Shown: in pieces, positions 1,739-60,674 of the stretch
How the letters are laid out: each line of letters starts with the position of its first letter
Numbering within the stretch: position 1 is the stretch's first letter
DNA from: a virus
Virus record (IMG/VR): IMGVR_UViG_3300045988_101367
Location: 11,047-75,046 of that record
DNA length: 64,000 nucleotides
Reading direction: 5' to 3' (one strand)
Program-made: the position numbers and the translations under genes
Notes under the pieces: generated by a model
Database searches by the model: none
What the model was told of the DNA's origin: nothing
What the model saw: the letters and a program-made list of their open reading frames with translations, nothing else

Positions 1739-2656
1739 TTAATATACAATAGGTTTACGTCTCGCTACTTTTAATTGTTGTTTTTTCTTTTTGTAGTAGT
1801 CAGCAAGCATACGTTCTACTTCATCTTTTCGATAAATACAATGATATAGAGTATTTTTCATATTATGATCATAATGATTAAGAATTAAATCTTTAATCAC
1901 ATATTCTGGATGTCTCTGTTGAAGCATAAATGCATAAGTAGAAAGTTGCATCTCATAGTGACCATAATTGCAATCCTCAATAGTGTTTAAAGGGTATTGC
2001 ATTTTAGTAGTACCTCTAGTAACTGTATTAAATCCTCCTTTTAAGTCTATTTTTTTATTAGTTTTATGGTCTACAATAGTAACTTCATTACCATATTTAA
2101 CCATTAAATCAATTTGTCCTGCTAAGTTTAAAACATTATCAGGAGTAGACCAGGAAATTAAATACTCAGGATATACACCATTTTCTAAGTCTAATTTAGT
2201 ATATCCCTCTTTACATATAAATTTACCTCCTAATCCAAATTTCTGTAAAGGCTTATCATCCTTCATATTGTAAAAAGAATGTTCTAATTGAGAATGAATT
2301 TTTGTTCCTCTCTCACAAGACTCTATTTTATTAGCTTCCCATTCATCAAGAATGTTCTGTTGTTCCTTATTAAGGTCATTAATGTCTACAGAATAAGCCT
2401 CTAAAATTTCTTTAGTAATTCTGTGTGTATTAAGTAAAGTCTTTTTTAAATCTTTCCATACATCTGTATCTAGAATTTTTTCCAAAGCTTTATACTTAGA
2501 CCAAAAATCTGAATCAAAAGGTTGTGCATAACTTCCTATTAAAGTAGTTACTGAGATATACTCTTTTTTTGGATTATTAATATCCCAATAAACGTGAGTA
2601 GAATCATTGAAAGCTACTCCATCATTTTCTTTATCAATCTTCATTGTCATTGCCAT
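1739..2656 (-). CDS. PD-(D/E)XK family nuclease (RecB/Cas4/YqaJ-like fold)
   Basis: Motif GQIDLMV-x12-TIVDHKT fits D...(D/E)XK; 305-aa ORF from the track. Confidence 0.5.
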   Translation of the reverse strand: MAMTMKIDKENDGVAFNDSTHVYWDINNPKKEYISVTTLIGSYAQPFDSDFWSKYKALEKILDTDVWKDLKKTLLNTHRITKEILEAYSVDINDLNKEQQNILDEWEANKIESCERGTKIHSQLEHSFYNMKDDKPLQKFGLGGKFICKEGYTKLDLENGVYPEYLISWSTPDNVLNLAGQIDLMVKYGNEVTIVDHKTNKKIDLKGGFNTVTRGTTKMQYPLNTIEDCNYGHYEMQLSTYAFMLQQRHPEYVIKDLILNHYDHNMKNTLYHCIYRKDEVERMLADYYKKKKQQLKVARRKPIVY

Positions 2657-3344
2657 TTACAGTATCATCAAGTATTGTAGATAATCGTTGAATTTGTGGA
2701 GAAATAACTGTATTATAATAACCTAACTCATATTGTTTAGGCTATTTATACAAAACTACTATTATTCCTATAGGATTTCTAACTCCTTCTATAGGATATA
2801 AAGCAGCTGAGTATGCCCCACTCTATTCTAACTTTTTATATAATCTAGGGAAAGTGTTTTTAATTTGAGGAAGACTATCAACTCTTAAATAAGTAGTATC
2901 ATCAATTTTACTTAATTCTTCTTGGTAATTAGTATACTATAAAGTCTACCAATAATCTCCGACATATTCATCAGAATATGATTTTACACTTTCTCTTATA
3001 CAATCTAAATAAATATAACTAAAACCCTGTAAGCTATGCTTAGTATTATGATAACTTAATAGCAAAACATTACTACAATCAGGATCTTTTATTTTTATAT
3101 TATCAATACACTAAGCTATATAAGGAGCTTGTTTAAATCCATTATCTTCTTCTTTACGTAATTCTTCTTTCTATTTTTTTAAAGCACTAGAAAGAGTTTC
3201 TTCATAATAACTTCTAGGAATTGGATTTAGTATAAATATTAATAATACAAAAATAATTATAGTTTTAGTTTCTGAAGTTAAGTTGGAAATAAGATTCCAT
3301 AATTTTTTTAAATAATCTAAAATAACCATTACAATTTTTTCCAT
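2634..3344 (-). CDS. hypothetical late protein (~236 aa) with several in-frame TAG
   Basis: ATG at 3344-3342 and TGA at 2636-2634. Gene length is a multiple of 3 only in the TAG-readthrough frame; it overlaps the nuclease gene start. Confidence 0.4.
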
Positions 3345-3490
3345 ATTACTATAAGTAATATTTGTATATATGTTATCTATAATAACATTATTACTATATT
3401 TAATAGGTAAAGTTATTATTATTTTGTACTATTTAAGTATATATATAGGTTATTTATATTCAAAAGTATTTTAATCTTATTTATTACATT
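3345..3490. promoter_or_regulatory. divergent intergenic region between minus-strand and plus-strand late operons
   Basis: AT-rich 146-bp gap with genes diverging on both sides; no specific promoter motif verified. Confidence 0.25.
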
Positions 3491-4255
3491 ATGACTAATT
3501 CTGAATTACAAGAAAGAATTTGTTCTGCCTATTAGGATTTTAAGATTAAAAATCAGTATAGTTTTATAAATAAACTAAAGAAAGGCGGATAGATAAAAGA
3601 TAGAAAAGATACTATTCATATAAAAGATAAAAATAAGGGTAAGTTTACTGCCTCAGCTAAAGCAGCTGGAGAATCTGTACAGGAGCATGCTAAATCTATA
3701 TTAAATAATCCTAATGCTACTCCTTTACAAAAACGTCGAGCTAATTTTGCTAGAAATGCTGCTAAATGGAAACATGCTAATGGAGGCACTATTCTTAAAA
3801 TGTAGTTAGCAGGTAAGATGCCTGGAACTAGGAGTCAATATAATAATGTGACTTAGATATATCAAGCTTTAGTAGATAAAGGAGTTACCCCACAGGCAGC
3901 TTTAGATTTAACTAACCAAAAGGTTGCAGAAAAAGGTTGGACTGGATTCGCTACTGGAGATAATAAAAAATATCCTAATGCACAATCTTTTGCAGACCAT
4001 ATAATTAATTGGCATAGTAGAATGTATCCAGACTCACTTAAAGCCTAGAATTTTTAGTAGTACTATGATGGAATACAAAAAAATGCTAAGTACATGTATA
4101 ACTCTGAAAAAGGCTATAATGGTTACAGAAAAGATTTATTACTTACAAGACCTGGGGTAAAGAAAAGAATTAATTATTATAGAGCTACTAAAGGATTAGG
4201 ACCATTAGCTTTAGTTAATTTTAATTAGCCTGGTAATTATTCTAGTTATGCGTAA
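3491..4255 (+). CDS. hypothetical late/virion protein (254 aa) with 7 in-frame TAG
   Basis: Continuous protein-like frame MTNSELQERICSAY(Q)DFKIKN...GWTGFATGDNKKYPNAQSFADHIINWHSRMYP... only if TAG is sense; ends TAA 4253-4255. Confidence 0.45.
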
Positions 4256-4493
4256 GAATAAATATTATAAAGAAAATAAAAAGATTTTAAATGAACATAA
4301 AACACAATGTATAATATGTGGTGAATCAGCTAAATGTTGTTTAGAATTTCATCATACTGGAGAAAAATTATTTAATATATCACAAGCTGTAAGTCATATA
4401 CCTACAGATTTATTTATTAAAGAATTATCTCAAACAGTTTGTGTTTGTAAAAATTGTCATTCTAAAATACATAATGGTTTGATAAAATTATGA
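4248..4493 (+). CDS. HNH endonuclease (small, free-standing)
   Basis: CIICGESAKCC-LEFHH-x-N...CKNCHSKIH matches the HNH zinc-finger nuclease signature; standard code; overlaps neighbours by a few nt. Confidence 0.6.
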   Translation: MRKNKYYKENKKILNEHKTQCIICGESAKCCLEFHHTGEKLFNISQAVSHIPTDLFIKELSQTVCVCKNCHSKIHNGLIKL

Positions 4494-5152
4494 GTGAATA
4501 TTTTAAATATGAAGCTTTAGATATTCCTGATAAACCTGCTACAGAAGTACTAAAAAGTAAAGGTTTAGATTTAGATTTTACTCCTAAACAATATTAGTAT
4601 ATTCCTGAATTAAATACTGGAGATTTTCATATTAATGGTTTAAATTTAGATGGATATTTTTCTATTAATAAAGCTAAAGAGCCTGTACAATATAAATATA
4701 CTCAGCTTAAATTAAACCATAATACTCCTAGTAAAAATAAATAGGTACTAGAATAGACTTTAGATAAATATGGTATCACTGGAAACAAGAAAACTACTTT
4801 AATGAAGATAGCTTCTCTAGAATCAGGATTTAATTCTAAAGCTCAATCTAAAAATAGTTCTGCTGCTGGATGGTTCTAGTTTATAGATAGTACTAGAAAT
4901 AAATATTCTAATTTATCTAGAGAACAGTTTAAAAATAGTCCTGATGCACAAGTATTAGCCGCATCACAATTATATGATGATAATGCAAGATTTTTAAGAA
5001 ATAATGGTATAGCAGCTACTGGAGAAGCTATAGCAGCATCATGGTTAAATCCAAAATGGACTAAAAATTATTATAAGTATGGTATTGCAGGAGGGTCTGA
5101 TGCCAATGGTACTAGTGTTGCAAAATATATAAATAAATTTAGAAATGCCTAA
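4490..5152 (+). CDS. lytic transglycosylase (SLT-domain) peptidoglycan hydrolase, TAG-recoded
   Basis: LESGFNSKAQSKNSSAAGWF(Q)FIDSTRNKY matches the SLT ES...AxGLMQ motif. The motif Gln is encoded by TAG, which supports TAG=Gln. Confidence 0.6.
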
Positions 5153-5788
5153 AATTTTGGAAGAATTGGATCGTCAAGTAGATAAATGGGAACCTACCGC
5201 GGCAGCTATATCTTTAGGTAGTTTAGGACTAGGTGCAGGTATAAGTACTACCGCTGTAGGTGCTCCTATAGGAGGAATTATTGCTGGAGTAGGTTAGTTG
5301 CCTTCTTTAGTTATAGATGGTTATCAAGCTGGTAGAGGATGGTACAAGACTTTTAAAGAATCCCCAAGTAATTTTGGAAATGCCGTATGGAATACTTTGG
5401 AAACTGGGGCAGATATATTAGGAGCTAAATTTGCATCAGCTTTAGCTAAGGGAGGTTCTAATTTTCTTAGATCTAGCGTATACAAACCTGGTTATTACCC
5501 TAAACATCATTCTCCAAGAGTTAATGCTATGCGAAAGAGACAAGTCGACGTAGTATTAAATTAGCAGAAAAAGAAGCTACTGAAAAATTGGCTAAAAGAG
5601 GAGTTCGATCAAGTCAAGGTTCATACTTTACATCTAAATTAAACTAGGAATTAAATAAACCTTATTTAGAGTAGGTAGCTAAAAGGAATACTGTAGTAGC
5701 AAATGATGTTACTAAATTAAGTCCTAAAATATAGTTACCTATTTAGATTATACCTAATATTATTGATATACATGCCAGAAATAAATAA
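5145..5788 (+). CDS. Gly/Ala-rich membrane-associated late protein; reading frame switches -1 between about 5525 and 5564
   Basis: Frame 0 gives MPKILEELDRQVDKWEPTAAAISLGSLGLGAGISTTAVGAPIGGIIAGVG(Q)LPSLVIDGYQAGRGWY.... A protein-like frame with 5 TAG continues in the -1 frame (…AEKEATEKLAKRGVRSSQGSYFTSKLN(Q)ELNKPYLE(Q)VAKRNTVVANDVTKLSPKI(Q)LPI(Q)IIPNIIDIHARNK) to TAA 5786-5788 and has no ATG of its own. Confidence 0.3.
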
Positions 5789-6287
5789 TAATAATTATAA
5801 TATTTGGAATAAATAGTTATCTCAAGCATGGGGTAATTAGGATTTATCTAAAGACCATTACGATTATAGAAAATACTATAATGACCAACCTATAGTAGCT
5901 TGGCTATAGTTAAATAGTATTCTAGCACATAATTGGAATAGGTATATTCCTACTGGGCATTTTCCTGATGAAGGAGCTTCAGGGACTTATAAAACTAAAA
6001 CTCATCCGACTTATCCAGATTTAGGAGATAAATCTTGGAGTAGAGATAATAAGATATATTATTTAAGTAAAGATCAATATATAAAACCTAATAGTGGTTA
6101 GCCTTTAGATTATACTATGGACTATCTAGGTTCCGATTATGACTATAATAATGGTGGAACTAAAGTAGTTTATGATGGAGCTAATGTTCTCCCAACATTG
6201 TATATTACTAAAACTAAAGGTAGTGGATTTAATTTAAAACCCAATAAAAATAATAATGGATACATATATTTTGACAGAAAAGATTGA
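5772..6287 (+). CDS. hypothetical late protein (171 aa), TAG-recoded
   Basis: MPEINNNNYNIWNK(Q)LSQAWGN(Q)DLSKDHYDYRKYYNDQPIVAWL(Q)LNSILAHNWNRYIPTGHFPDEGASGTYKTKTHPTYPDLGDKSW...; ends TGA 6285-6287. Confidence 0.45.
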
Positions 6288-6471
6288 GGAATTACAAAGA
6301 TTTTTAGATTTTGTAAGTGAGAGGGATAAATAGTTATGGGATAAATATTTAAAAAAATATGAAACAGGTGATTAAAACTGGAAAAGGATTACTATGGAAA
6401 ATAGAACACCCAGTAGAAATATCATATTCTAAGATTACTCTAGATTCTTTATTAAAACTATGTGAAAAAAT

Positions 6472-6687
6472 ATGAAATAGTTTTTAATTAAATTAATAAC
6501 AGCACATACTGGAATAAGTAGTAAAAGAGTGTGTGGAATATTAGGATGGATAGTAAGTTTAATTATTCTAATATACTGTTCTATTAGTTAGATACAAGCT
6601 CCTGATATGATAGATACAGTTTTATATTGTTGTATGGGATTACTAGGTATAGATAGTATAACTAGTATATGGAAAAATAAAGTATAA
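6472..6687 (+). CDS. small two-TM membrane protein (holin-like candidate), 2 in-frame TAG
   Basis: MK(Q)FLIKLITAHTGISSKRVCGILGWIVSLIILIYCSIS(Q)IQAPDMIDTVLYCCMGLLGIDSITSIWKNKV; two hydrophobic helices. Confidence 0.3.
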
Positions 6688-6689
6688 AT

Positions 6690-7826
6690 ATGCCAATAGT
6701 AGATGAGAGTAAACAAAATAAAGGAGTAAATAATAATACTCGGAATAAATAGATGGCTATAGATATGGAATATTATAATAGATTAAATCATCCTAGATTT
6801 AAATCTTCATATCTTGGTGCTAAATATTAGTAGAGAGTTATTCCCGTTAGAACTTTAAATGGGGTACAAGATGTATTTGTAGATAATAGAGGGACTATAA
6901 AATAGGGTGGGCATACTAATTTTAAATTATATAATTATAGTAATAAGAATAGAACCCATCCTATAAAAGGAGCTTATGCTAGAGAAGTAGATAGTTGGAA
7001 TAATAATACTAGTCCTATTAAAGCATTAGTTAATTCAGGAATAGGTTATGCTTTAGCTCCAGCTGCTTAGGCAGTATATGATTATACTAAAGGTGCTTTA
7101 GATATATCTAAGAATCTAACTAAAGCTAGTAATTATTTAGTAATGCTTCCTGTAATAGGATATGCTGTAAAAGTTCCTTTAAAACGTGGAGTAGAAGTAG
7201 CTATGAGAACTTCTAATAATGCGAATCCTATAGAAGACATAGTATATAATATGCATAAGGCAAGTCCTAAAAAACATGCTGGAGTATTTTCTTATATATC
7301 AACTGGTGTAGGTTACAATACCTATGCTCCTGAAGCATATACTGGATTTTAGAAAGCAGCTAAAGGCAATGATATGATTGATGCTTATTTATATAATAAA
7401 ACTATAAATCCTTCTTATGGAGTAAGAAAGATAAATGTAGATTATGGTCCACATGAAAATTATATAAGAAAGATATATCCTTATAAAGATATTCCTGTAT
7501 ATGAAAATACAGAAACTTTAGATTTCTTTACTAAGAAACCTATGTAGAAAGCTTCTAATATAACTAATAAAACTCCTTGGAAAGGTGCTAATAATAATCT
7601 AGATTTTGGAGATAATGGAGTTGAGGCTGCTGGACATTTAGTTTAGGAAGGAACATCTAATGGTAAGAAAGTATATAGAGCACAAGATATTTGGAAGTTT
7701 AATCCTGATGAATATAAGTAGAAATGGAGTTCATATGATTTAGACAGTAAAGCTGTATTAGGATTAAAAATATTAGATAAATTAGGAACTCCAGTAATAG
7801 TAAGAACACCATGGCTGTATAGATAA
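6690..7826 (+). CDS. hypothetical late/structural protein (378 aa) with about 9 in-frame TAG
   Basis: ATG 6690 to TAA 7824-7826 is a multiple of 3. The frame is continuous and protein-like, and includes track ORF 7143-7352, only when TAG is sense. Confidence 0.5.
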
Positions 7827-8042
7827 TTACTGATAATGATTCAATACTGATATGAAGATGGGTAGTTGTATGGTAGAAGAAAATCAAATAAGATCCCTTT
7901 TAAAATTAATTCTGATAAAGCTAATAGTATAATATTTCCATAGGTTTAGGCTAAAGGAGTAGATCCTAACATCTACTTTAGTATACCACTCGGCAAAATA
8001 TAAAGAAATGCCCACTGCTAAAAAAATATCTACTCCTAAATA

Positions 8043-8918
8043 GAAAGAAGAAACAATAGTGGTAAATAGTTGATTAATTTAGTAGGAAATGGATTAAGTA
8101 GAAAACTATAGTTATTTTTTGATTCAGAACCTGAGCATACTAGTAAAAGAATTAAAATTCCTAATAAAAAAGTAACTAGAAATAAGAGGAGAGAAAATTT
8201 AGAAATAGAAATATCTCCAAATAGTTATACTATAAATGATACTACTAAAATAAACTCTAGAAGATATCGTATACCAGAATCCATAAATTTAACAAAGTAT
8301 ACTTTTGGTTATAGAAATAGAGGTGATTATACTCCTATAAATAGTATAGCAGCTCCTATTACTGCTTTTTCTAATTTCAAATCTAAAGAAAGTATATCTC
8401 CTAATAATTAGAATTATATAGGTATAGATTCTATTGGTAAATTTGTTTTTGGTAAATATTCAGATATTCCTAATGGAAGTATGATTTCTCCAACATTTAA
8501 AAATATAGTTACTGGTTTTAAAACAGATTCTAAAGATAATGTATTATTCATGGAAAGTAATTCTAATGGTTCTAAAAAAAGTCCTATATTAAATGCTATA
8601 GTAAATGGTAAATCTGTAAATAACAGATTAAATTTCTTAGCTAATAATAATAGAACTGATGAATATGGTTCTATAGCTGGAGGAAGAATAATTATATAGG
8701 CTGGTAAAGAAGTTCGTTTAGTTTCTGGAAGTATAGATAATATTAGAGATGAGATAGAGGCTATGAAATCTAGAAACAATGTTAAAACAGTAGATTTATA
8801 TACTCTAGATAATGGTACTTATCATTCAGGATTAAGAACCTTTGATAAAATATTTACCAGAGATGATTTATTAGAATATGATGCTGGTGGAGGAAATTTT
8901 TTGTATATAAAGCAATAA
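8043..8918 (+). CDS. hypothetical late protein, C-terminal ~290 aa; start unresolved
   Basis: Frame open from 8043 with TAG as sense and includes track ORF 8481-8699. No ATG in the first ~60 codons. An upstream short ORF 8008-8073 lies in the +1 frame, so a -1 shift or indel is possible. Ends TAA 8916-8918. Confidence 0.35.
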
Positions 8919-8925
8919 TACCACA

Positions 8926-8969
8926 ATAGCCGAAGTTTCTCAAATGAGAAGCCTCGGCTATTTTTTTTT
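8926..8969 (+). terminator. rho-independent terminator
   Basis: atagccgaagtttctc / gagaagcctcggctat stem (~14 bp, 2 mismatches) followed by T9. Confidence 0.6.
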
Positions 8970-9002
8970 AAAATTAATAAATATCCATCCCCAAATATTT
9001 AT

Positions 9003-9444: not shown

Positions 9445-9445
9445 G

Positions 9446-9517
9446 TTCTCCCACAAGGATTCGAACCCTGACTAAAAGATTTAGAGTCTTCTGTGCTAAC
9501 CATTACACCATAGGAGA
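9446..9517 (-). tRNA. tRNA-Sup(CUA), amber suppressor
   Basis: Hand-folded cloverleaf: acceptor TCTCCTA/TGGGAGA, D-stem GTGT/GCAC, anticodon stem GAAGA/TCTTT with loop CTCTAAA (U33, anticodon CTA, A37), T-arm CAGGG-TTCGAAT-CCTTG, discriminator A. No CCA encoded. Confidence 0.7.
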
Positions 9518-12516: not shown

Positions 12517-12885
12517 ATGAAAAATTTAAATAAAAAAATTATATCAGGTTGTGAGAGTCTTGCCGGTAAAGCTCTCACAATAGATCATGATGCTAAAACT
12601 TATCACATTGGTGATAGAGTAATTCCATTTTCTTCTTGTGTTATTAAAGAAGGTAAAATTTATTACTTGACACCAATGTGTAAAGCTCTTATTAATATGG
12701 GTTTTAATGGCGTAGCAGATTTTACCTCTAATACAGTTATTTGTACTAGTTTTGATAATTGTAATTGCAATATTAAAACTGTAGGACCTGTAACTATCGA
12801 CGATAGAGTCTTTATTAAGATTACTCTTAATTCAGAATTTCCAATGTATGAAAGTTACGAATCTTTAAGAAGTGAAGTTTATTAA
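12517..12885 (+). CDS. hypothetical Cys-rich protein (122 aa)
   Basis: Track ORF; its 3' end lies inside the tandem duplication. Confidence 0.4.
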   Translation: MKNLNKKIISGCESLAGKALTIDHDAKTYHIGDRVIPFSSCVIKEGKIYYLTPMCKALINMGFNGVADFTSNTVICTSFDNCNCNIKTVGPVTIDDRVFIKITLNSEFPMYESYESLRSEVY

Positions 12886-13286
12886 GTAAAAGAATGAATC
12901 TGCACTCTAGTACTATAGAGTATAATGAATAGTTGGCATCTTGGAAAGAAAATTGGTTAATCATAAGACAAGACTTATGTATTTTTAAAATAAAATAGTT
13001 ATCAACTAATACAGTTATTTGTACTAGTTTTGATAATTGTAATTGCAATATTAAAACTGTAGGACCTGTAACTATCGACGATAGAGTCTTTATTAAGATT
13101 ACTCTTAATTCAGAATTTCCAATGTATGAAAGTTACGAATCTTTAAGAAGTGAAGTTTATTAAGTAAAAGAATGAATCTGCACTCTAGTACTATAGAGTA
13201 TAATGAATAGTTGGCATCTTGGAAAGAAAATTGGTTAATCATAAGACAAGACTTATGTATTTTTAAAATAAAATAGTTATCAACAA
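12729..13286 (+). repeat. perfect tandem duplication, 2 x ~279 bp
   Basis: Sequence from taatacagttatttgtactag... to ...aaaatagttatcaac occurs twice back to back (12729-13007 and 13008-13286). Copy 2 carries a fragment of the 3' end of gene 12517-12885. Confidence 0.8.
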
Positions 13287-16240: not shown

Positions 16241-16324
16241 ACGGTAGTAGCTCAGTGGTTAGAGCATCTCTTTTTATAATAGGTCATTTCGAGAAGGTCA
16301 TTGGTTCGAATCCTTTCTACCGTA
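16241..16324 (+). tRNA. tRNA-like gene, long extra arm, anticodon loop TTTTATA (nominal anticodon UUA)
   Basis: Acceptor ACGGTAG/CTACCGT perfect, D-arm GCTC-AGTGGTTA-GAGC, weak anticodon stem TCTCT/ATAGG (one mismatch), same unusual T-arm ATTGG-TTCGAAT-CCTTT as the 15731 gene. Confidence 0.3.
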
Positions 16325-16406
16325 CAAATTTAATTTGATATATTGTTAGTGTGTTTGGATAAATCCTGTATTAGTACGTTACCACTATTCTCCTTTATAG
16401 AAATGT

Positions 16407-19451: not shown

Positions 19452-19523
19452 AAATGTGTAGCTCAGTGGTTAGAGCATCTATCGTTGAGTAGAAGGTTGG
19501 CAGTTCAAATCTGTCCACATTTC
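19452..19523 (+). tRNA. tRNA with atypical anticodon arm (possible 8-nt loop)
   Basis: Acceptor AAATGTG/CACATTT perfect, D-arm GCTC-AGTGGTTA-GAGC, T-arm GGCAG-TTCAAAT-CTGTC. The anticodon region folds as TCTA-TCGTTGAG-TAGA. Confidence 0.4.
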
Positions 19524-19719
19524 CTTTTTCTATCATTATTTTAATTTTTAATTTATTAAAAATAAAAGAGCTTTGCTTGTGAAAGTAGAGCTCTTATCAA
19601 AATTATGCGAAAACTTTAATAAGTCGGAGGACTTACAAAAACTCAAAAACAGTGTGTCTTAGTTGCAACGTTCTCTTGACTGAGAAAGGAGAGGATTAAC
19701 GACCCTCAGACACATCTTC

Positions 19720-27321: not shown

Positions 27322-27654
27322 GGGGCATTCGTGGTTTTGATTGTATAGGAGATAAGAAACACAGCAAGACAGTTGGAGAGACAACAAAACAATAATCGCT
27401 AGAGTTATCAATATGACTCCTGTTTCTTACGCTATTGCAGCCTAAGAAACCGAGCAGCACTTGCTTGGGAACGGAAAGGTGCATTATTCTTTTATTTCTT
27501 TATTAGTTCTCTGTATACTTTAGGAACAGAGTGGTGGAAGTTGGCAATGTTAATCTTGTCAACCCTAACAGACAAGGATAGTCTTTAAAACCTATGCTGT
27601 AAGAACGTTTTGATGCAAATATGCAAGACTGGAGTTCGACTCTCCAATGCTCCA
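27322..27654 (+). ncRNA. ssrA: tmRNA (SsrA-like) candidate
   Basis: 5' GGGGCAT pairs with 3' ATGCTCC (one G-U), giving a tRNA-like acceptor with discriminator A. 3' T-arm TGGAG-TTCGACT-CTCCA. Internal tag-like reading frame ...aat atg act cct gtt tct tac gct att gca gcc TAA (…SYAIAA*) resembles the ...YALAA tmRNA tag ending. No protein ORF in the region. Confidence 0.55.
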
Positions 27655-27688
27655 CTAGTTCATAGAACTATTTTATTATTTGTTTTTA

Positions 27689-28699: not shown

Positions 28700-28966
28700 A
28701 TGGGTAAACAAATTTGGTTGCAAGATGGCAACGTTTTTAGTCAGGGTAGTGCGACAACAGTATCTCATCCTGAAGGATTACCGAAAGGTATTTATGAAGT
28801 AAAAGTCTCAATGACTGGATTTTACTTAAGTAAAATCGCTGAGTCTTTTACGTTTGATTACAAACTGTATGGTCTAAACCAAAAATTTATTAATTATGTC
28901 TTAAAGACATATGATAACACTACAGGTAATTTAGGTGTTCTGTTAGACGGAATCAAAGGAACTGGT
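28700..28966 (+). CDS. AAA+ ATPase, exon 1 (ends in Walker A ...LLDGIKGTG)
   Basis: The ORF terminates right after GIKGTGKI. Joining ...ggt (28966) to exon 2 aaa aca gtt... restores the GxxxxGKT Walker A. Confidence 0.5.
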
Positions 28967-30277
28967 AAAATTTAAGCAAATTCAGTAAGCTTAAATTTTT
29001 AAAAATTTTATATTTATTTGGATTTAATAAAATTTCATATATATTATAATAATATTAATTTTAACTATATGAATATGAAATTTGTAATTAATGAAGAATT
29101 AGGAGAAAAAATTAAAACTTTGTACTTAATAGATGGATTAAGTTGTACTAAGATTGGTAAAGAGGTTGGAATTTCTACTTCTACTATAAGTTCATTTCTA
29201 AAAAGAAATGGAATTGAAGTAGTTAATAAACAAAACAAATTATTATTTGATCTAGATAAAGATATTATTCCTAAATATAAGCAAGGGATAAGTTTATCTA
29301 AATTAGCTAAAGAGTATCATACTTCTATCCAAACTTTGTCTAGAAAATTAAAAGCTAAAGGGATTGAAATAATCAATCATCAAAATGAAACTAAATTTAA
29401 TGAACATATCTTCGATGTTATAGATACCGAGGAGAAGGCTTATTGGTTAGGATTTATATTTGCTGATGGTTATATTTCATCAAGAGATAACGGTTTTGAA
29501 CTATCTTTAAAAGGCTCTGATATTGAACACTTACATAAATTTAATAAGTTTATGGAGCATAATAAAGATAATGTCAAATTAGGGGAAGTTAAGAATAAAG
29601 ATAAAACTTTTTTAAGATGTCGCTGGGGAATAGTCAATAAGCACTTATGGAATACTCTAAATAATTTAGGATGTATTCCAAGAAAAAGTTTAACTCTTCA
29701 ATTTCCTAATATTTCTGAAGAATTAAAAATTCCTTTTATTAGAGGATACTTTGACGGAGATGGTTGTCTAAGTTATTATTAGAGAGCTAAAATTTTACCA
29801 AAAGTTTCATTTCTAGGAACTGAGCAATTTTTAGTAAAGATACAATCAATATTAAATAATTTTAATATAAAAAGTTCTTTAGTAAAAGATGCGCGAATGG
29901 AAAATACTCTAGTATTAAATGTATCTTCAACAAATTCTTTAGATTTTTTAGACTTAGTATATAGTAATAGTTCCATTTATTTAGACAGAAAATATAAAAG
30001 ATATAAAATTTTTAAAACTTGCCGTTCTAAACAGGAATGTTTAGAATTATTAGCGGGTGAAAACGGAGAAGGCTGTGATGCTAATTCCGTGGTAAATGAA
30101 GATAGTAACGAATCTTCATCACTGTAACGCGTAGAAGTTGAAACTCTTATAAGAGAATATAATACTTCCAAGAGCACCCGCTCTCCCAATCATTTGAATG
30201 GAGAAAAAGGTACGCTGAGCTATAACAAACAAGAAGTTATAGAAATATAGATAAAAAGCTATATGATAACAATACTG
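28967..30277 (+). mobile_element. group I-like self-splicing intron carrying a LAGLIDADG homing-endonuclease ORF; approximate boundaries
   Basis: It splits an ATPase gene between Walker A and Walker B. The 5' exon ends in U and the intron ends in G (…atactg|aaaacag). Its 3' ~230 nt and first ~20 nt are homologous to the ORF-less intron at 60123-60374. Confidence 0.5.
29018..30127 (+). CDS. LAGLIDADG homing endonuclease (two motifs) with N-terminal HTH repeats; needs readthrough of TAG 29780-29782
   Basis: AYWLGFIFADGYIS and IRGYFDGDGCLSYY are the two LAGLIDADG motifs. The track ORF stops at TAG immediately after motif 2, yet the same frame continues (…(Q)RAKILPKVSFLGTE(Q)FLVKIQSILNNFNIKSSLVKDARMENTLVLNV…) to TAA 30125-30127, as expected for a full-length enzyme. 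Confidence 0.6.
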
Positions 30278-31165
30278 AAAACAGTTACCGCAAAGGAACT
30301 TTGTAATCATTTACAGCTTCCTGTGATCTTAGTACAATCAATGGGTGTTGATACTAATAGTAAATTAATAAAATATTTATCTACCTCTATTGATTTTGAC
30401 TGTATCTTCTTCTTTGATGAATATGAGAAAGAATTTAAAAATTCTTCAGATGTTCTTTCTTTCATGGATGGTACTTATAACTCTATTTATCGTAAGGTAT
30501 TTTTACTTACTACTAATGAGTTAAATGTAGACCCAGATCTTCTTGGTAGACCTTCTAGAATAAGATATAAAAAGTCTTTCAGTAATCTTTCTGAGGAAGT
30601 TACTAGAGAGATTCTTAATGATATCTTGGAAGATAAAACTGCTATAGAAAAGGTTATAGAGCTAACTCATTCTATGAATATTATTACTATAGACTTAATT
30701 AAAGCTATAGCAACTGAAATTAATATTCATGGAGTAGAAGCTCTTCCTGATATTAAAGAAACCTTTAATATTGAATTCTCTAGGTTTACTTATTTGTATA
30801 GAGAAGTACAAATCAGACATTGTGACTTGAAATTTACTCCTGAAAATATAAAGAATATATTAAAAGCTTTTTATAAGTTTAAAGAAATTAAAAAGAAAGA
30901 TTGGAAGAAACATACTCGTGAAGAAAGCAAATTCTATAACGAATGGTCTACTAAGTTCAATGAGGATTATGGTTCCACTACTGAGGATAAAGAGTTAAAA
31001 TATCTGGAACCTGGAGATTATTTTGAGGATGATCGTATATTGATGGTAAGTATTAAAGAAAAATATGTAGTAACTATGACTGATTATGGGAATATTAGAA
31101 TATATATAATTAATAGTTGCTATTCTACAAGTAAAGCTACAGGTCTTGTAAATTACGAATTATAA
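30278..31165 (+). CDS. AAA+ ATPase, exon 2 (Walker B FFFDEYE, sensor LLTTN, Arg-finger-like RPSR)
   Basis: KTVTAKELCNHLQLPVILVQSMGV…CIFFFDEYE…VFLLTTNE…LLGRPSRIRY; the track ORF 30263-31165 begins inside the intron 3' end. Confidence 0.5.
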   Translation, partial: KTVTAKELCNHLQLPVILVQSMGVDTNSKLIKYLSTSIDFDCIFFFDEYEKEFKNSSDVLSFMDGTYNSIYRKVFLLTTNELNVDPDLLGRPSRIRYKKSFSNLSEEVTREILNDILEDKTAIEKVIELTHSMNIITIDLIKAIATEINIHGVEALPDIKETFNIEFSRFTYLYREVQIRHCDLKFTPENIKNILKAFYKFKEIKKKDWKKHTREESKFYNEWSTKFNEDYGSTTEDKELKYLEPGDYFEDDRILMVSIKEKYVVTMTDYGNIRIYIINSCYSTSKATGLVNYEL

Positions 31166-40896: not shown

Positions 40897-41196
40897 ATGA
40901 TTTGTCTAAATTTAGTTTTACAGAATTTTCAAGAGCTATTAAGTATTGGGATACATTCCTTAGATAATGGAGAAATTCCTGCTAAAATGCCTAAAAAATA
41001 TGTTCTAGAACTTATATGTGATTATTTAGCAGCAGCTAAAACATATGGAGCTGACCCTAGAAGAGAATATACATGGTGGCTTAAACAACAGCCTCATATG
41101 AAAATCCACAAAAAAACTAAGAGTTATATAACTGAAGTGTTTTATAAATATAGTATAGGTTTAACATTAAAAGAATCAATTAATGGAAATTATTAA
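40897..41196 (+). CDS. hypothetical protein (99 aa)
   Basis: Track ORF. Confidence 0.35.
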   Translation: MICLNLVLQNFQELLSIGIHSLDNGEIPAKMPKKYVLELICDYLAAAKTYGADPRREYTWWLKQQPHMKIHKKTKSYITEVFYKYSIGLTLKESINGNY

Positions 41197-42473
41197 TGCA
41201 ACTGATGGCTACAAGCTTGGTCATCATCGTATGTACCCAGAGGGTACACAAATGGTCTATAGTAATTGGACTCCTAGAAGTAATCGTTACTTCCCAGAAG
41301 CTACAGAAGGTTCTGTAGTATTTGGTATTCAGTACTTTGTAAAGAAGTATTTGATAGAGGAATTTAACAAATGGTTTGCTCTTCCTAAGGAAGAAGCTAT
41401 TAAGCAATTTGCTTATCGTGTAGGCAACTTTGTAGACCTTAATCAGGTTGGAACAAAACATATTGAAGAACTTTATGATTTGGGGTATCTTCCTATTGAA
41501 ATTAAAGCTCTTCCTGAAGGTTCTATCTGCCCTATAAGAGTGCCTATGATGACTATTAAGAACACTCTTCCTGATTTCTTCTGGTTGACTAATTACTTGG
41601 AAACTTTAATTAGTTGTACTCTATGGCTCCCTTGTACTTCTGCAACAAGTGCTCGTCTTTATAAGAAGAGACTTATAGAACATGCTAGAAAGACTGGATT
41701 CCCAGAGGAAGTAAATCTAGGTTTCTCTTGTCACGATTTCTCAATGAGAGGTATGGCAGGACTTGATGCTGCTATTATCTCTGGTATGGCTCATATGACT
41801 TCATTCTGTGGTAGTGAAACAATTCCTGCTATTGAAGCAGTAGAACATTATTACAATGCAAATGTTACTGAAGAACTTGTAGCTGCAACTGTTCCGGCTT
41901 CAGAACATTCAGTAATGTGCGCAGGAGGTGAGGATGGTGAGATTGAAACATACCGCCGTCTTATTAATGACCTATATCCAACAGGTATTATCTCAATAGT
42001 ATCTGATACTTGGGATTTTTGGCAGGTAGTTGAGAAATTCTTGCCTAAGCTTAAGGCAGATATTATGAAACGTGTTGGTCGAGTAGTAATTCGTCCTGAT
42101 AGTGGTGATCCAGTAGACATTATTTGTGGTCTTCGTACAAATCCTCACTATCATACTGCTATGAAAGAAGGTAAGTATTACTGTGATTTTAATCCATTTA
42201 TGGACGATGATGAAAATCATTATGTAGAAGTATCTGAAGGTCAGTACTATGGAGCATATTATATGCTAGGAAAAATCTTTGGATGGAATACTACTGTAAA
42301 TGACTATCGTTATCCAAGTACCAAGGTTGGATTACTTTATGGAGATTCTATTACTCTGGAGCGTCAGCGTGATATCTATGCTAGATTGGAAAACGCTCAT
42401 ATGGCAGCTTGTAATCTTGTTCTAGGTATTGGATCTTATACTTATCAGTTTAAGAGTAGGGATTCACTTGGCT
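41183..42473 (+). CDS. nicotinamide phosphoribosyltransferase-like enzyme (NAMPT family; Namat-type candidate), exon 1
   Basis: N-terminus MEIINATDGYKLGHHRMYPEGTQMVYSNWTPRS matches the NAMPT start (…[23 protein letters not shown]…). The frame stops 7 codons after ...SRDSLG inside the intron. Confidence 0.65.
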
Positions 42474-42686
42474 TAACTGCGAGGCCCTTTATATAGTAAT
42501 GTATATCGAATAACCGGAAGAATTGCTGGGAAGAGTTTGTTAATTCTTAATCAGCAGCCGAGCCACAGGGAAGACTGAGGAAGGTTCAGAGACTAAGGAC
42601 ACTACGGTGAGCCTACAGCCTCCGGAATCCCTAAATATAGGGATTATGATATAGTCCATAAAAATTAACATAATTTAGCTTTTATG
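42474..42686 (+). mobile_element. group I self-splicing intron (IA2-like core, no ORF), 213 nt
   Basis: Contains P (ccggaagaattgctgggaagag), Q (aatcagcagcc), R (ggttcagagactaa) and S (gatatagtcc) consensus-like elements. 5' exon ...cttggcU can pair with gaGGCC (P1 with U-G at the splice site). Intron ends in G before tcgcag...; splicing restores the NAMPT C-terminus in frame. Confidence 0.65.
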
Positions 42687-42949
42687 TCGCAGTAAAAGCA
42701 ACTGCTTGTATAATTAATGGAAAGCTTATAGAAATCTATAAGCATCCAAAGACTGATGATGGAACAAAGAACTCTCTCAAAGGTCTTATTAGAATTGAAG
42801 AAGAGAATGGTAAGTATGTCGCTTATGACCAGCAGACTAAGGATGCAGAACTGCAAGGTTGTCTTAAAACAGTCTTTGTAGATGGAGAATTAGTAAGAGA
42901 ATATTCTCTTTCTGAGATTCGTGAACGTGTAAATTCAACATTAGTATGA
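42687..42949 (+). CDS. NAMPT-family enzyme, exon 2 (C-terminal 87 aa)
   Basis: …FAVKATACIINGKLIEIYKHPKTDDGTKNSLKGLIRIE…CLKTVFVDGELVREYSLSEIRERV aligns with the NAMPT C-terminus (…[29 protein letters not shown]…[21 protein letters not shown]). Confidence 0.6.
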
Positions 42950-50266: not shown

Positions 50267-50878
50267 ATGTTTGATTTAAACATTGATGAAGAAATAACAA
50301 TTTTAGAAAAATATAATATTACTCCTACTGAATTATTTGTTATTAAAGCTATTAATGCTTATATAGAAGATTATTCAGAAGATTATCTTCGTAGGTATTT
50401 GGCTATTGATAAAAAGTATGTAGGAAGTTTTATAGATATACTTAAATCTTTACAAGATAAAGGTCTTATCCTTAAAAGTTATAAAATTATTCCAGGAATG
50501 AAACTAGTTCCTGAAGAGATACCATTTAATAAAAACTTCCTAAAATGTTTAGCTAAGAGTTCCTTTGAAATGGGAAAAGAACTTAGAGAACATTATCCTA
50601 GATTTAGAAATATTAATGGATGCTTAACTAGTATGCTAGGTGTTTCTAAAAAGTTTAATAGTCTTGAAGATGCTTATAGAACTTATGGAAAGAAAATCCA
50701 TTGGAATGAAGAACTTCATAAAAAGATTATTGATTTACTAGATTGGGAAGCTAATACTGATAATGGTATTATTAATTATAGCTTAGCTACATTTATTGTA
50801 GATGAAAAATGGGAAGACCTTGAAGCTTTAAAGAATGGAGATTCAGGTATGAATTATAATTCAATCACCACTCTGTGA
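50267..50878 (+). CDS. hypothetical protein (203 aa)
   Basis: Track ORF. Confidence 0.4.
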   Translation: MFDLNIDEEITILEKYNITPTELFVIKAINAYIEDYSEDYLRRYLAIDKKYVGSFIDILKSLQDKGLILKSYKIIPGMKLVPEEIPFNKNFLKCLAKSSFEMGKELREHYPRFRNINGCLTSMLGVSKKFNSLEDAYRTYGKKIHWNEELHKKIIDLLDWEANTDNGIINYSLATFIVDEKWEDLEALKNGDSGMNYNSITTL

Positions 50879-51957
50879 GTTTAGAAAGTTTTAAACGTTC
50901 GATAGAGCTTGGTAGACAAGGATTTAATCAAGGATTTAGTATGGGTCTTCCTAAATTGGAAGAATTAATAGGAGGTATTACTAAAAGTACCATGACTCTT
51001 TTATTTGCGAGTTCAGGACAAGGTAAAAGTTCATGTGTATTATATTCTTACATATATGCTCCTTTAAAAGAACATTTAGAAGATAATAAATTAAAAATTA
51101 TTTTCTTTGCTCTTGAAATGAAAGAAGACTTTATTATAGCTAAATTATTAAGTACCTATTTATATGATACCTATCATATTGTTGTAACTGCTAAACAAAT
51201 ATTATCTATAGGTAAAGATTATATTTTACCTGATGATTTATATGAGTATGTACAACTAGGATATGATTGGCTAGAAAAAGTATATAAAGTACTAACTATA
51301 TACGAAGGCTCTTTTAATTCTGATAGGCTCATAAAAGTTACAATGGAAGAGCTTAAAAAAGAAGGAGAATTTACAGAGAATAAATATATTCCGAAAGACC
51401 CTGAAAAAGTAATACTTTCAGTAACTGACCATGTTGGATTGATCCAACCATCCAATGGAAGGAACAGAAAAGGAGAAATTGATGATTATACTAATAAATT
51501 AGTTATCATTAGAAATAAAACAGGATTATCTCCAATTATTGTTATGCAATCCAATAGAGCAGTGGCTAACATGGAAAGAAAAAAGAATGAAGCTTTCATG
51601 GAGCCAATGGTGGAGGATATTAAGGAAACATCCACTGTTTCAGAGAATTCTGAAATTATTTTAGCTGTATATAATCCTCAAGTTGATAAAAGAAAAACTT
51701 ATAGAGGTTACCAAGTTAAAGAAATGGGTTATAGGTTTCGAAGTATTCTTGTACTAAAGTCAAGATATGGAGAAAACCAAGTAGCTGATTGCTGTTTCTT
51801 TGACGGAGCAGTAAATAAGTGGATGGAAATGCCTAAGCCAGAAAAAATCTTTGATTATTCTAGATATCGAGCTACAAATAACAGTTCAACAGATAATACA
51901 ATAAAGAATGAAGATAAAGATGAAAAAGTGAAAAATAAATTAGACTATAATTTATGA
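50875..51957 (+). CDS. DnaB-like replicative helicase (RecA-fold C-terminal domain)
   Basis: Walker A LLFASSGQGKSSCV, Walker B-like ILSVTDHVGLIQ, RecA/DnaB-like layout. Confidence 0.55.
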   Translation: MSLESFKRSIELGRQGFNQGFSMGLPKLEELIGGITKSTMTLLFASSGQGKSSCVLYSYIYAPLKEHLEDNKLKIIFFALEMKEDFIIAKLLSTYLYDTYHIVVTAKQILSIGKDYILPDDLYEYVQLGYDWLEKVYKVLTIYEGSFNSDRLIKVTMEELKKEGEFTENKYIPKDPEKVILSVTDHVGLIQPSNGRNRKGEIDDYTNKLVIIRNKTGLSPIIVMQSNRAVANMERKKNEAFMEPMVEDIKETSTVSENSEIILAVYNPQVDKRKTYRGYQVKEMGYRFRSILVLKSRYGENQVADCCFFDGAVNKWMEMPKPEKIFDYSRYRATNNSSTDNTIKNEDKDEKVKNKLDYNL

Positions 51958-58880: not shown

Positions 58881-60122
58881 ATGAAACAAGCAACAAAATC
58901 TTCTTATATTAAGTTCTTTAATGATGCAATTAATAATAATCGTTCTTTAAAAGCTCAGTGTACTATATCAGGAAAAAATATAAATACTGTATATATTACA
59001 ATGAGAAATCTTAGAAAGAAAGAAAATAAAGATGAAGATGACAAGAAGATATTGGAATTATATGATAGACTAAAGGATACTAAGAAAAAAGAAGTAAAGA
59101 AAGATACAGATGATGCTTCTAATACTTGGGAAATAAGAGACGAGGAGACTGGTAAAATTACTGGATATAAGTTTGAGATTTTCAGAAGAAATAAGCCCGC
59201 AATCACAGGAGTCTTTACTAGAAACGAAATGAATAGTGTATATAGAATGTATACTTATTACGGTTCTGGTTTAACCCAGCAGATTGTCAGCAGATATTTC
59301 CCAGATTATTCTCTTATTGACTTTAAAAGAATTTTACGAGCTTTTAATATTACTAAAGCATCCTCTCCGTTTGCTCCTCATATGTATGAAGAATATACTG
59401 AGGATGAATTAAAAGAAATGCATCTTAGGGAAAAAGAGAATGATTTCTTAAAAAGAATAGAGAAAGATGAGGTAAAGGATTTAAGAGCTTTAGTTACTAA
59501 GTTAACTAAGGAAACCTCTAAGTCTTTAAATAAGGAACTTATAGAAGACACTATTAAAAATACAGTAAAGGATTATAAAGAGCTTCCAGTAAATATTAAT
59601 AATAAAGAAGCGAAATATCCTGATTTAATTATATGGTTATCTGATTTACATATCGGAGCTTATAATGCTAAATATAGTAGTTTTGTACAGTTACCTTCTT
59701 ATGATGTTCCAGAAATTAAATCTAGATTATCTAGAATTGTGGAATCTTTTGTGGGACAAGAATATCATTCTGTATATGTAGTTAATCTTGGAGATTCTAT
59801 TGATGGATTCAATAAAGAAACTACTAGAGGGGGTCATGAGCTTCCTGAGATTCTTGATAATAAAGAAATTAGTGAAGCATTTATAGAGTGTATGATGGAG
59901 TTCTTTGCTACTCTTACAGTAAAAGTAAAAAGTGAAGATTTTAATTATCTCTCTATAGGAGAATCTAATCATGGTGGGGATTTTGAATGGTTAAATCAAA
60001 AACTCTTAGCTGCATATTTAACTAAATATAATATTAAGAGTTATATTAGTAACTATCCTATTGATAATTTTATTATTGGAGATCATCAATTCCTGTATGC
60101 TCACGGTAGAGTTTTGCCGTAT
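58881..60122 (+). CDS. calcineurin-like metallophosphoesterase (Mre11/SbcD-like), exon 1
   Basis: Motifs IIWLSDLHIGA, NLGDSIDG, GESNHGG and GDHQFLYAHG, in the order expected for this family. The ORF ends a few codons later inside the intron. Confidence 0.5.
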
Positions 60123-60374
60123 ATTTGAGAAATCAAATATGTTAAAACAAACCAATATCGGTGAAGGCTGTGATGCTAATACCGAGATAACTACAGAAAC
60201 TAAAGAGTCTGTAGCATCGTAGAGCGTAGAACTTGAACCTGAGAAATCAGAATAAAATAGTTCCAAGAGTGGTTTGCCCTCAGCACGTAAAGGTGGAGGT
60301 GAATATGTACGCCGAGCTATAGTAAATAAGAAACTATAGAAATACAGATAAAAAGCTGTATGATAACAAAACTG
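60123..60374 (+). mobile_element. group I-like intron without ORF, homologous to intron 28967-30277; approximate boundaries
   Basis: ~230 nt share ~85% identity with 30050-30277 (e.g. gaaggctgtgatgctaat…, tacgccgagctatag…, tatagaaatacagataaaaagctgtatgataacaaaactg). The start atttgagaaatcaaata resembles atttaagcaaattcagta of the other intron. Confidence 0.5.
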
Positions 60375-60674
60375 AAAGATAATAATTCTCAGACTAGACA
60401 ATTTCCTCTTACTTTAAATCCTCAGACTGAATTATTCTTTGCTAATTATATAGCAGAAAAAGGTATATATAGTCCTCATATTTATGTAGTAAAAGGTGAT
60501 TTACATAATTATGCTTATACTACTGGTAAACGATTTGATTATATATCAGTAGGTAGTATGTATGGTAGTAGTAATTATATTACAGCTAATTTTGGATATA
60601 CTAAATGGAGTATTAATTATACTATTGTAAAAGATAAAGATATTTTGATGGGAACTATTAAAGGAAATAATTAA
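60375..60674 (+). CDS. metallophosphoesterase, exon 2 (…VVKGDLHNYAY… GHxH-like motif)
   Basis: The track ORF 60360-60674 begins within the intron 3' end. The frame matches exon 1 when spliced at …tat|…ctg|aaa gat. Confidence 0.45.
   Translation, partial: KDNNSQTRQFPLTLNPQTELFFANYIAEKGIYSPHIYVVKGDLHNYAYTTGKRFDYISVGSMYGSSNYITANFGYTKWSINYTIVKDKDILMGTIKGNN

Follow-up and report, generated by a model that had tools for sequence, protein, structure and literature searches.

The 64,000 nucleotides analyzed here (the window; positions 11,047 to 75,046 of the IMG/VR virus record IMGVR_UViG_3300045988_101367) contain a phage gene for an AAA ATPase that is broken into two open reading frames (ORFs) within its nucleotide-binding motif. 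It is very probable that the DNA between the two halves, positions 28967-30277, is a mobile group I intron lying between the glycine (GGT) and lysine (AAA) codons of Walker A. The intron belongs to a lineage already noted in gut crAss-like phages. An earlier note on this DNA had called the element group I-like, a view that is now supported by the splice-site rules and by covariation of the helices, including the P3 pseudoknot. The structure of the RNA and the logic of the exons are documented below; from these sequences we infer catalysis, the activity of an intron-borne endonuclease, and the read-through of an in-frame TAG. The two introns described here, their internal features, and the genes that they split are all on the + strand.

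Exon 1 of the ATPase gene (28700-28966) ends with GGT, the codon for the last glycine of Walker A (GIKGTG). Exon 2 (30278-31165) begins with AAA ACA, the Lys-Thr of the same motif, and goes on to encode Walker B (FFFDE), sensor 1 (TTN), and an Arg-finger-like GRPSR. Read without splicing, the ORF at 28700-28975 has the C-terminus ...LLDGIKGTGKI* and so stops at Walker A, as the earlier note had pointed out; the ORF at 30263-31165 (N-terminus MITILKTVTAKEL...) contains the FFFDEYE, TTN, and GRPSRIRY that the note had described as Walker B, sensor, and Arg-finger-like motifs. When T28966 is joined to A30278 (ggt|aaaaca), the phase is kept and the product reads GIKGTGKTVTAKEL, which is the in-phase restoration of GIKGTGKT that had been predicted. 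The spliced protein is 384 amino acids long, carries GIKGTGKTVTAKELCNHLQLPVILV, and reads GIKGTG|KTVTAKEL at the junction. Alternative cut points would give an identical mRNA; GGT|...CTG|AAAACA alone both restores GGTAAAACA and obeys the U/G rule. With this cut alone a U precedes the 5' site and the intron closes on a G, so its bounds are 28967-30277 (1311 nt), U28966 being the end of the 5' exon and G30277 that of the intron.

Homology runs through the junction. The spliced protein matches Pfam AAA (PF00004; 4e-11, residues 80-184) and PHROG 2376 “ATPase” (6e-50, residues 10-336), both matches spanning the junction, and the AAA domain of p97 can be aligned through it to residues 75-200. Walker A (GIKGTGKT), Walker B (FFFDE), sensor 1 (TTN), and the Arg finger (GRPSR) are found together in the spliced product only, and neither half alone has a full P-loop. 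A tblastn search of 50,697 phage records with the spliced protein found homologues in 398 of them; among the matches listed, each is one unbroken match covering the junction, and four were explicitly aligned. The spliced ATPase is therefore collinear, and gap-free at the junction, with about 400 uninterrupted phage homologues, the intron-less relatives that the earlier note had suggested looking for. One of them, the gut-phage scaffold MT838061.1 (41% identity), has the uninterrupted DNA GGCACTGGAAAGACTGTTACCGCTAAGGAACT, encoding GTKGTGKTVTAKEL, with GGA as a variant of the GGT target codon. Both exons are open and conserved; exon 2 is free of stops and 95-96% identical to its counterpart in the scaffold MT835492.1, the closest relative of the window. 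In annotation, 28700-28966 and 30278-31165 should be joined into a single spliced gene. A tmRNA (27322-27655, + strand; Rfam 49.1 bits), with the ARAGORN tag peptide ARVINMTPVSYAIAA, is encoded a short way upstream.

RNA structure and guide sequence

We read the structure on a second, ORF-less copy of the intron (intron 2, described below) and then mapped it to the intron in the ATPase gene (intron 1). Read on from exon 1, the intron gives two codons and then a TAA at 28973-28975 (GGT|AAA ATT TAA); the introns of the phages cr6_1 and cr118_1 also have such an early stop in the exon frame. No role has been demonstrated for an AT-rich hairpin (28967-29000) at the 5' end. P1 is formed by the exon sequence UGGU (28963-28966) with GCCG (30021-30024) and has 4 bp. 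It is followed by P2, the hairpin CUAAACA-GGAA-UGUUUAG (30027-30044), which has an equivalent in the minimum-energy fold of intron 2. The 5' strand of P3 (CGGGUG, 30054-30059) pairs with CACCCG (30175-30180) and crosses P7, making the pseudoknot; its equivalents are AAACCA/UGGUUU in intron 2 and GAGAGCA/UGUUCUC in cr6_1. After a J3/4 of three nucleotides (AAA) come P4 and a short P5 (30063-30090), where P4 (ACGGA/UCCGU) pairs 30063-30067 with 30086-30090, J4/5 is GAAG, and J5/4 is UAAU. The P6/P6a hairpin (30091-30123) is separated from P7 by J6/7, which holds the TAA stop of the endonuclease gene (30125-30127). P7, presumed to be the guanosine-binding helix, pairs GCGUA (30129-30133) with UACGC (30211-30215). 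Between its 5' strand and the 3' strand of P3, in what we take to be the subgroup IA position (as in T4 td), are P7.1 (GAAGU/ACUUC, 30134-30138 with 30164-30168) and the nested optional hairpin P7.2, together occupying 30134-30168. Directly 3' of P7.1 is the invariant CAAGAG (30169-30174). The next segment (30175-30215) contains the 3' strand of P3, P8 (UCUCC/GGAGA, within 30182-30204), J8/7 (AAAAGG), and the 3' strand of P7. The 3' block (30220-30277) contains P9 (CUAUAAC/GUUAUAG, 30220-30242), P9.1 (AUAUAG/CUAUAU with the loop AUAAAAAG, 30245-30264), and the tail GAUAACAAUACUG, which ends on the terminal G30277.

This arrangement is the group I plan: J3/4 is A-rich and 3 nt long, J4/5 is A-rich, P3 and P7 form a pseudoknot, and additional helices stand between P7 and the 3' strand of P3. 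The lineage is IA-like. Relatives were collected by BLAST and then by a pattern scan of viral contigs (CCAAGAG..GTACGC..GATAACAA). BLAST found related cores in the crAss-like phages cr6_1 and cr118_1, in Lak-A1, and in phages of Clostridioides, Bacillus, Staphylococcus, and Streptococcus; the pattern scan found more than 119 loci. The lineage is widespread both in phages that infect gut Bacteroidota and in those of Firmicutes. The terminal G is shared by intron 1 (G30277) and intron 2 (G60374), and a G is located 3-5 nt past GATAACAA in 96 of 100 distinct relatives.

Do the proposed helices covary? They were tested on 96 distinct members from viral contigs, aligned with MAFFT and with no fitting to the structure. 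Standard pairs fill 89.4% of the paired cells, versus 33-41% in controls in which the partners were slid by 1-3 columns; the covariation score is 0.552 versus a control maximum of 0.103, and none of 500 shuffles reaches the observed score. Two-sided changes are seen at 6/6 pairs of P3, 6/6 of P6 (91% paired), 5/5 of P8 (93.5% paired), and 4/5 of P4, and at most pairs of P7.1 (97.5% paired, 4/5 pairs covarying), P9, and P9.1. P4 also shows a compensatory change from A-U to G-C between the window and MT835492.1. P7 (GCGUA/UACGC) is essentially invariant (98% paired in the 96 sequences) and is the one helix that does not covary. Folding of intron 2 with ViennaRNA gives independent agreement: P2, P4/P5, P6, P7.2, P9, and P9.1 are all present in the centroid, and the minimum-energy fold has a z-score of -4.5. 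All core helices of intron 1 are intact and match the family consensus. Two other assignments were given up along the way. A reading of the helix 30134-30168 as P4, with GCGUA/UACGC as P3, was dropped because the long-range pairing of 30054-30059 with 30175-30180 covaries, and the initial register of P8 gave 45% pairing, which a shift by one column raised to 93.5%. A scan for promoters and terminators was uninformative in this AT-rich DNA, with 28 promoter-like sites versus 18 expected and no terminator in the intron.

The internal guide sequence is UUGCCG (30019-30024), directly upstream of P2 and homologous to UUUGCCGU of intron 2. Its GCCG pairs with the exon sequence UGGU, placing a wobble pair, U28966.G30021, at the splice site, and its UU is able to pair with the initial AA of exon 2 (P10). 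The ORF-less introns have their guide only a few nucleotides inside the intron, and there P1 varies together with the exon: intron 2 has ACGGU|AGAGUUUU-GCCGU (pairing ACGGU/GCCGU), and two other ORF-less members have GGGGU|AAAUCUUU-GCCCU (L049; pairing GGGGU/GCCCU) and GUGGU|...UAUU-GCCGU (L109). An alternative guide for intron 1, AUUCAGU (28979-28985), pairs with ACUGG but would make the U of the splice site face a U, and it was rejected in favor of UUGCCG.

In 26 of the 96 members the 3' exon starts with K[ST], in the Walker A motif of several different proteins (ATPases like that of the window and DnaB-like helicases among them), and in 16 further members it starts with K, several of these being homologues of the second split gene of the window. 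One member, L078, is an ORF-less intron at the same ATPase site. A literature search on phage group I introns that target P-loops found nothing specific. The lineage offers a clean natural case of a ribozyme guide and a homing endonuclease adapted alike to those codons of P-loop proteins that are conserved best.

In the mechanism that we propose, the RNA would fold after transcription, and an external guanosine would attack after U28966; the freed exon would then attack after G30277, ligating the exons and restoring GKT. The TAA two codons into the intron would keep ribosomes out of the ribozyme.

The endonuclease gene and its in-frame TAG

Intron 1 carries a LAGLIDADG homing-endonuclease gene at 29069-30127, which starts at ATG 29069 (alternatives are ATG 29075 and TTG 29120) and stops at TAA 30125-30127. 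The earlier note had described a two-motif LAGLIDADG enzyme at 29018-30127. The two motifs, AYWLGFIFADGYIS and IRGYFDGDGCLS (...FIFADGY... and ...YFDGDGC...), are there, but 29018 is a mere TTG, and the note overlooked both the in-frame TAG discussed below and the placement of the gene within the intron. Because the guide lies 1054 nt from the splice site, the ORF is in the loop of P1 (L1), which P1 closes over about 1 kb. It overlaps the 5' half of the ribozyme core, so that the last 36 or so codons (30019-30127) double as P1', P2, P3, P4, P5, and P6. The N-terminal part of the protein has helix-turn-helix modules (Pfam HTH_23, 2e-7). The protein further matches Pfam LAGLIDADG_3 (8e-11, residues 222-291), the WhiA-type LAGLIDADG family (1e-4, residues 123-183; 22.5 bits, below the cut-off of 23.2), and PHROG 4645 “endonuclease” (7e-56, residues 27-313), and it is 42% identical to the “intron-encoded endonuclease” of cr6_1. 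A sequence search of PDB with the endonuclease returned no LAGLIDADG relative and only a weak helix-turn-helix match, to the Sleeping Beauty transposase. The enzyme would presumably cut intron-less alleles around GGTAAA, which would lead to homing; its predicted targets are GGAACTGGTAAAACAGTTACC and GACGGAATCAAAGGAACTGGTAAAACAGTTACCGCAAAGGAAC. It may also assist the folding of the intron.

The frame contains one TAG (29780-29782), five codons past the second LAGLIDADG motif. It is closed there under the standard code and open if TAG encodes Gln. Is the TAG read as a sense codon? The window encodes a suppressor tRNA with the anticodon CUA (9445-9517, - strand; found by ARAGORN and Rfam), which appears to be Gln- or Glu-like judging from U1-A72 and the D arm, and which is required if the endonuclease TAG is read through. 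Elsewhere in the window, ORFs at 3.4-8.9 kb each require read-through of 2-9 TAGs, and the TAG-dependent ORFs lie within 2600-9000 on both strands (e.g., 3437-4255, 4475-5152, 6681-7826, and 8040-8918). One of them, 4475-5152, matches PHROGs for lytic transglycosylase and tail lysin, with alignments that run through three of the TAGs. In-frame TAGs are essentially absent from the genes beyond about 27 kb, and the recoding of TAG seems confined to a late or virion gene block.

Two other tRNA-related features were noted. At 16241-16325 (+ strand) there is a putative suppressor tRNA of 85 nt with a long extra arm and the anticodon UUA, which reads TAA; a TAA suppressor would be unusual in such an AT-rich phage. 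At 19452-19524 (+ strand) there is a tRNA-like gene whose anticodon was not callable by ARAGORN.

Homologous intron endonucleases in other viral contigs have TGA at a conserved Trp (L013, L096, L115, and L089) or TAG, which is at Gln positions in L009 and is also found in L095; recoded stops thus turn up repeatedly in the endonuclease genes of introns, in phages that differ in their codon reassignments. Because the phage uses TAG as a sense codon in its late-type genes, we favor read-through, and we think it somewhat probable that the endonuclease TAG is read as Gln by the phage tRNA(CUA). Read-through would hold back synthesis of the endonuclease until the suppressor has appeared, a delay that has been proposed for other recoded phages too.

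Against this stands the possibility that the intron splices but its endonuclease is dead, with the TAG at 29780 a true stop just past the second motif and the intron an immobile passenger heading for the loss of its ORF, as in intron 2, cr118_1, and L078. The comparison with MT835492.1 provides evidence on both sides. Before the TAG, there are 14 synonymous and three non-synonymous differences between the two genomes; after it there are two synonymous and nine non-synonymous ones, and the region past the TAG could thus no longer be under protein selection. A 38-nt deletion in MT835492.1 shifts the first ATGs of its endonuclease out of frame, and loss of the ORF is common in the family. All of these weigh against read-through. 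Three of the nine non-synonymous changes, on the other hand, are RNA-structural and lie in P4/P5. The frame stays open for 115 codons past the TAG, of which 57 are nucleotide-identical in MT835492.1, and the TAG itself is kept there despite changes in the following two codons, although, with the genomes 95% identical, its conservation is a weak argument. The phage reads TAG as sense in other genes and carries the suppressor tRNA, homologues have recoded stops at conserved Trp and Gln positions, and the match to the PHROG 4645 profile is aligned through the TAG position. We regard a dead endonuclease as possible but doubtful. In annotation, the endonuclease should be translated with TAG as a sense codon, and its single TAG would make a simple test case of whether recoded phages time the expression of selfish genes by stop suppression.

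A second intron and recent movement

The earlier note had seen that the 3' region of the intron recurs near 60 kb. This recurrence is far beyond chance, as shown by direct repeats (30064-30174 with 60159-60269, 75%; 30205-30280 with 60302-60377, 86%) and by an nhmmer profile built from the 96 relatives, which in the 64-kb window finds only 30047-30278 (E = 5e-42) and 60147-60375 (E = 1e-43). What had been overlooked is that the second copy is a complete ORF-less intron in another gene. Intron 2 (60108-60374, 267 nt), the sister of intron 1, splits a gene whose first exon (58881-60107) matches PHROG 284 “exonuclease,” has metallophosphoesterase-like motifs, and ends ...YAHG with GGT; the second exon (60375-60674; KDNNSQTRQFPLTL...) begins KDNN, with AAA as its first codon. 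The split is again at GGT|AAA, and the match of the spliced product to PHROG 284 runs through the junction. This nuclease-like gene, 58881-60107 plus 60375-60674, should also be called as one spliced gene. Intron 2 retains an in-frame remnant of the endonuclease C-terminus (NIGEGCDANTE...), and its core is 94.7% identical to that of an endonuclease-carrying intron in the otherwise unrelated viral contig L097. Because of this remnant and this identity, we consider intron 2 to be a deletion derivative of a recently transferred, endonuclease-carrying element.

MT835492.1, which is 95% identical here, is exactly 267 nt shorter at the site of intron 2. It reads ...FLYVHG|KDSRNQTRQFPLTLN (DNA CACGGA|AAAGAC) and carries the intron-less allele of the second split gene with the predicted junction. 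Identity between the two genomes is 98% on the 5' flank of the site and 90.5% on the 3' flank, and the exon codons beside the site are more diverged, which looks like the pattern of a co-conversion tract. At another site the situation is the reverse. The DnaB-like helicase gene of the window (50860-51957, + strand) has an empty GGT|AAA target at 51022-51027 in its Walker A motif (ASSGQG|KS), reading TCAGGACAAGGT|AAAAGT (51024|51025) with no intron. MT835492.1 (90-96% identical) has a family intron of about 400 nt in the Walker A motif of its DnaB-like helicase (SSGIG|KSS), at 2397-2800 of the segment that we call L126 (MT835492.1 23816-29099). The presence/absence polymorphism between near-identical genomes documents recent movement of these introns. 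L126 also has a further endonuclease/intron fragment at 59-242, with no counterpart at that place in the window.

Could intron 1 be a decayed relic that no longer splices, the ATPase being a pseudogene here? Several observations point this way or otherwise count against a functional intron. P1 of intron 1 has just four base pairs, two of them G.U, and has to close over 1054 nt. In MT835492.1 (2947-8373, L002), the 134 nt corresponding to 30164-30297 are missing between copies of a 4-nt repeat, ACTT, a loss that begins with the 3' strand of P7.1, takes in the 3' splice site, and reaches 20 nt into exon 2, so that the copy in the nearest genome is broken. This means either that the ATPase is dispensable or inactivated there or that the scaffold, which is marked UNVERIFIED, was misassembled across the repeated intron core. 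Searched at E <= 10, neither 28800-30450 nor 60000-60480 has a match to the Rfam group I model RF00028, and the loci of 18 relatives have none at E <= 1. The invariance of P7 leaves this helix without support from covariation, although it is compatible with a catalytic helix. Splicing at 28966|30278 is itself deduced from sequence. Nevertheless, the core helices of intron 1 are all intact and fit the family consensus, and the exons are open and conserved, including the stop-free exon 2. A short P1 is moreover the family norm: P1 has 3-6 bp in the 15 members with a locatable Walker A 5' exon, and a P1 of 3-5 bp is found even in clearly recent insertions. We therefore find a decayed relic unlikely.

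The silence of RF00028 also raises the question of whether this is some other class of self-splicing or processed RNA, outside group I, the more so as the same model does find another intron in this window. That intron, of about 213 nt (about 42474-42686), interrupts a NAMPT-like gene (41183-42473 plus 42687-42949; GGCT|...TATG|TCGCAG, giving ...SLGFAVKAT...), and RF00028 detects it with 58.9 bits (E = 1e-14, 421 nt searched), which makes it a positive control. It is nevertheless missed at the gathering threshold, at which a scan of the whole window returned tRNAs and the tmRNA only, so the default scan is not a reliable negative. The earlier note had held that the core of intron 1 differs from that of the NAMPT intron, and this is so, RF00028 giving no score on either family copy; the covariance search for group I introns that it had suggested was of no help, the Rfam model being blind to intron 1. 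The miss is a limit of one model and not a structural criterion. The order of the helices, the P3/P7 pseudoknot, the A-rich J3/4 and J4/5, the U.G pair at the 5' site, the terminal G, and the potential for P10 are all those of the group I plan, while 267 nt are too few for a group II intron and no group II domains are present. A class other than group I is thus very improbable.

The least credible alternative, two separate genes or a naturally split two-polypeptide ATPase with a free-standing endonuclease between them, can appeal to the frequency of free-standing homing endonucleases between phage genes and to the ATG of the ORF at 30263-31165, but the break separates the Gly and Lys of GxxxxGK[ST] and leaves both products without a P-loop, covarying RNA structure extends over 230 nt right up to the junction, the intron-less alleles are collinear, and the ATG lies inside the conserved tail of the intron, (U)AUGAUAACAA, where relatives have ACG, AGG, or GAG, and is not conserved as a start codon; the independent starts that the earlier note had named as grounds for refutation are not what we find.

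Apart from these elements, the window has a perfect tandem duplication at 12728-13283, with a unit of 278 nt and two copies that are 100% identical, which could be a recent duplication or an artefact of the assembly.

Comparison with known systems

Taking the two introns together, we offer the tentative proposal that they may represent a large, uncatalogued sub-lineage of phage group I introns that is invisible to RF00028. A sizeable part of it would be specialized on GGT|AAR in P-loop NTPases through a nearly fixed minimal guide, UU-GCC, and would there have a LAGLIDADG gene in L1 that shares about 36 codons with the core and whose translation is gated by a suppressor. The family is also present in cultured phages of Bacillus, Staphylococcus, Clostridioides, and Streptococcus and in Lak phages. 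Four of its features (the RNA structure, the Rfam blind spot, the guide tuned to P-loops, and the L1 ORF overlapping the core) may be undescribed; we found no paper on them in a literature collection that is incomplete.

The suppressor-gated endonuclease has a parallel in Agate phages, for which Borges et al. (10.1101/2021.08.26.457843) describe an intron endonuclease and propose that recoded stops delay its synthesis until late infection. In both cases an intron endonuclease in a standard-code, early-type gene has in-frame stops that only a suppressor can read. The Agate gene has several TGA codons read as Trp, whereas that of the window has a single TAG, and both cases are proposals based on sequence.

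Within the same genome, the intron of the NAMPT-like gene is likewise a group I intron in a phage gene. In contrast to intron 1, it has a conventional core (GGUUCAGAGACUA / GAUAUAGUC), is recognized by RF00028, lacks an ORF, and has no sequence similarity to the family. The introns of T4 td, nrdB, and sunY and those of Twort and SPO1 belong to subgroup IA2 and lie in conserved phage genes, with P7.1/P7.2 as extra helices. In introns of the T4/Twort type, the terminal G is preceded by a hairpin and an A-rich tail, the upstream reading frame meets a stop soon after entering the intron, and an endonuclease ORF is looped out of the core. Intron 1 shares with them P7.1/P7.2, the hairpin and A-rich tail, the early in-frame stop, and the looped-out ORF. 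It differs in the sequences of P4, P7 (GCGUA/UACGC), and J8/7 and in being negative with RF00028. Its ORF is in L1 and not in the loops of P6, P7.1, or P9, and its endonuclease is of the LAGLIDADG type, compared with GIY-YIG or HNH in the T4 td/IA2 introns.

Jug phages, too, often have group I introns (PMC12880540). Selles Vidal et al. (PMC11835236) seeded their database of group I introns with Rfam's model, so it is likely to lack a lineage that RF00028 does not detect. Surveys built on RF00028 probably undercount the introns of phages.

The closest known system is that of cr6_1 (NC_055894.1, Suoliviridae), where gp44, gp43, and gp42 are an ATPase fragment, an “intron-encoded endonuclease” (so named for gp43 in RefSeq), and an ATPase. 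Yutin et al. 2021 (PMC7886860) reported group I introns in core genes of crAss-like phages, including “ATP_43b,” identifying them from protein domains and without an RNA structure; the ATPase of cr6_1 is presumably this ATP_43b. The likeness to the window is extensive. The ATPases are homologous and interrupted at the identical point (GTKGTG|KTV in cr6_1), a homologous LAGLIDADG gene occupies the same position in the intron, with its stop in J6/7, and the ribozyme cores can be aligned. The two differ in that the endonuclease of cr6_1 has no in-frame stop and in that cr6_1 is another phage, the only close relative of the window being MT835492.1, an unclassified gut scaffold.

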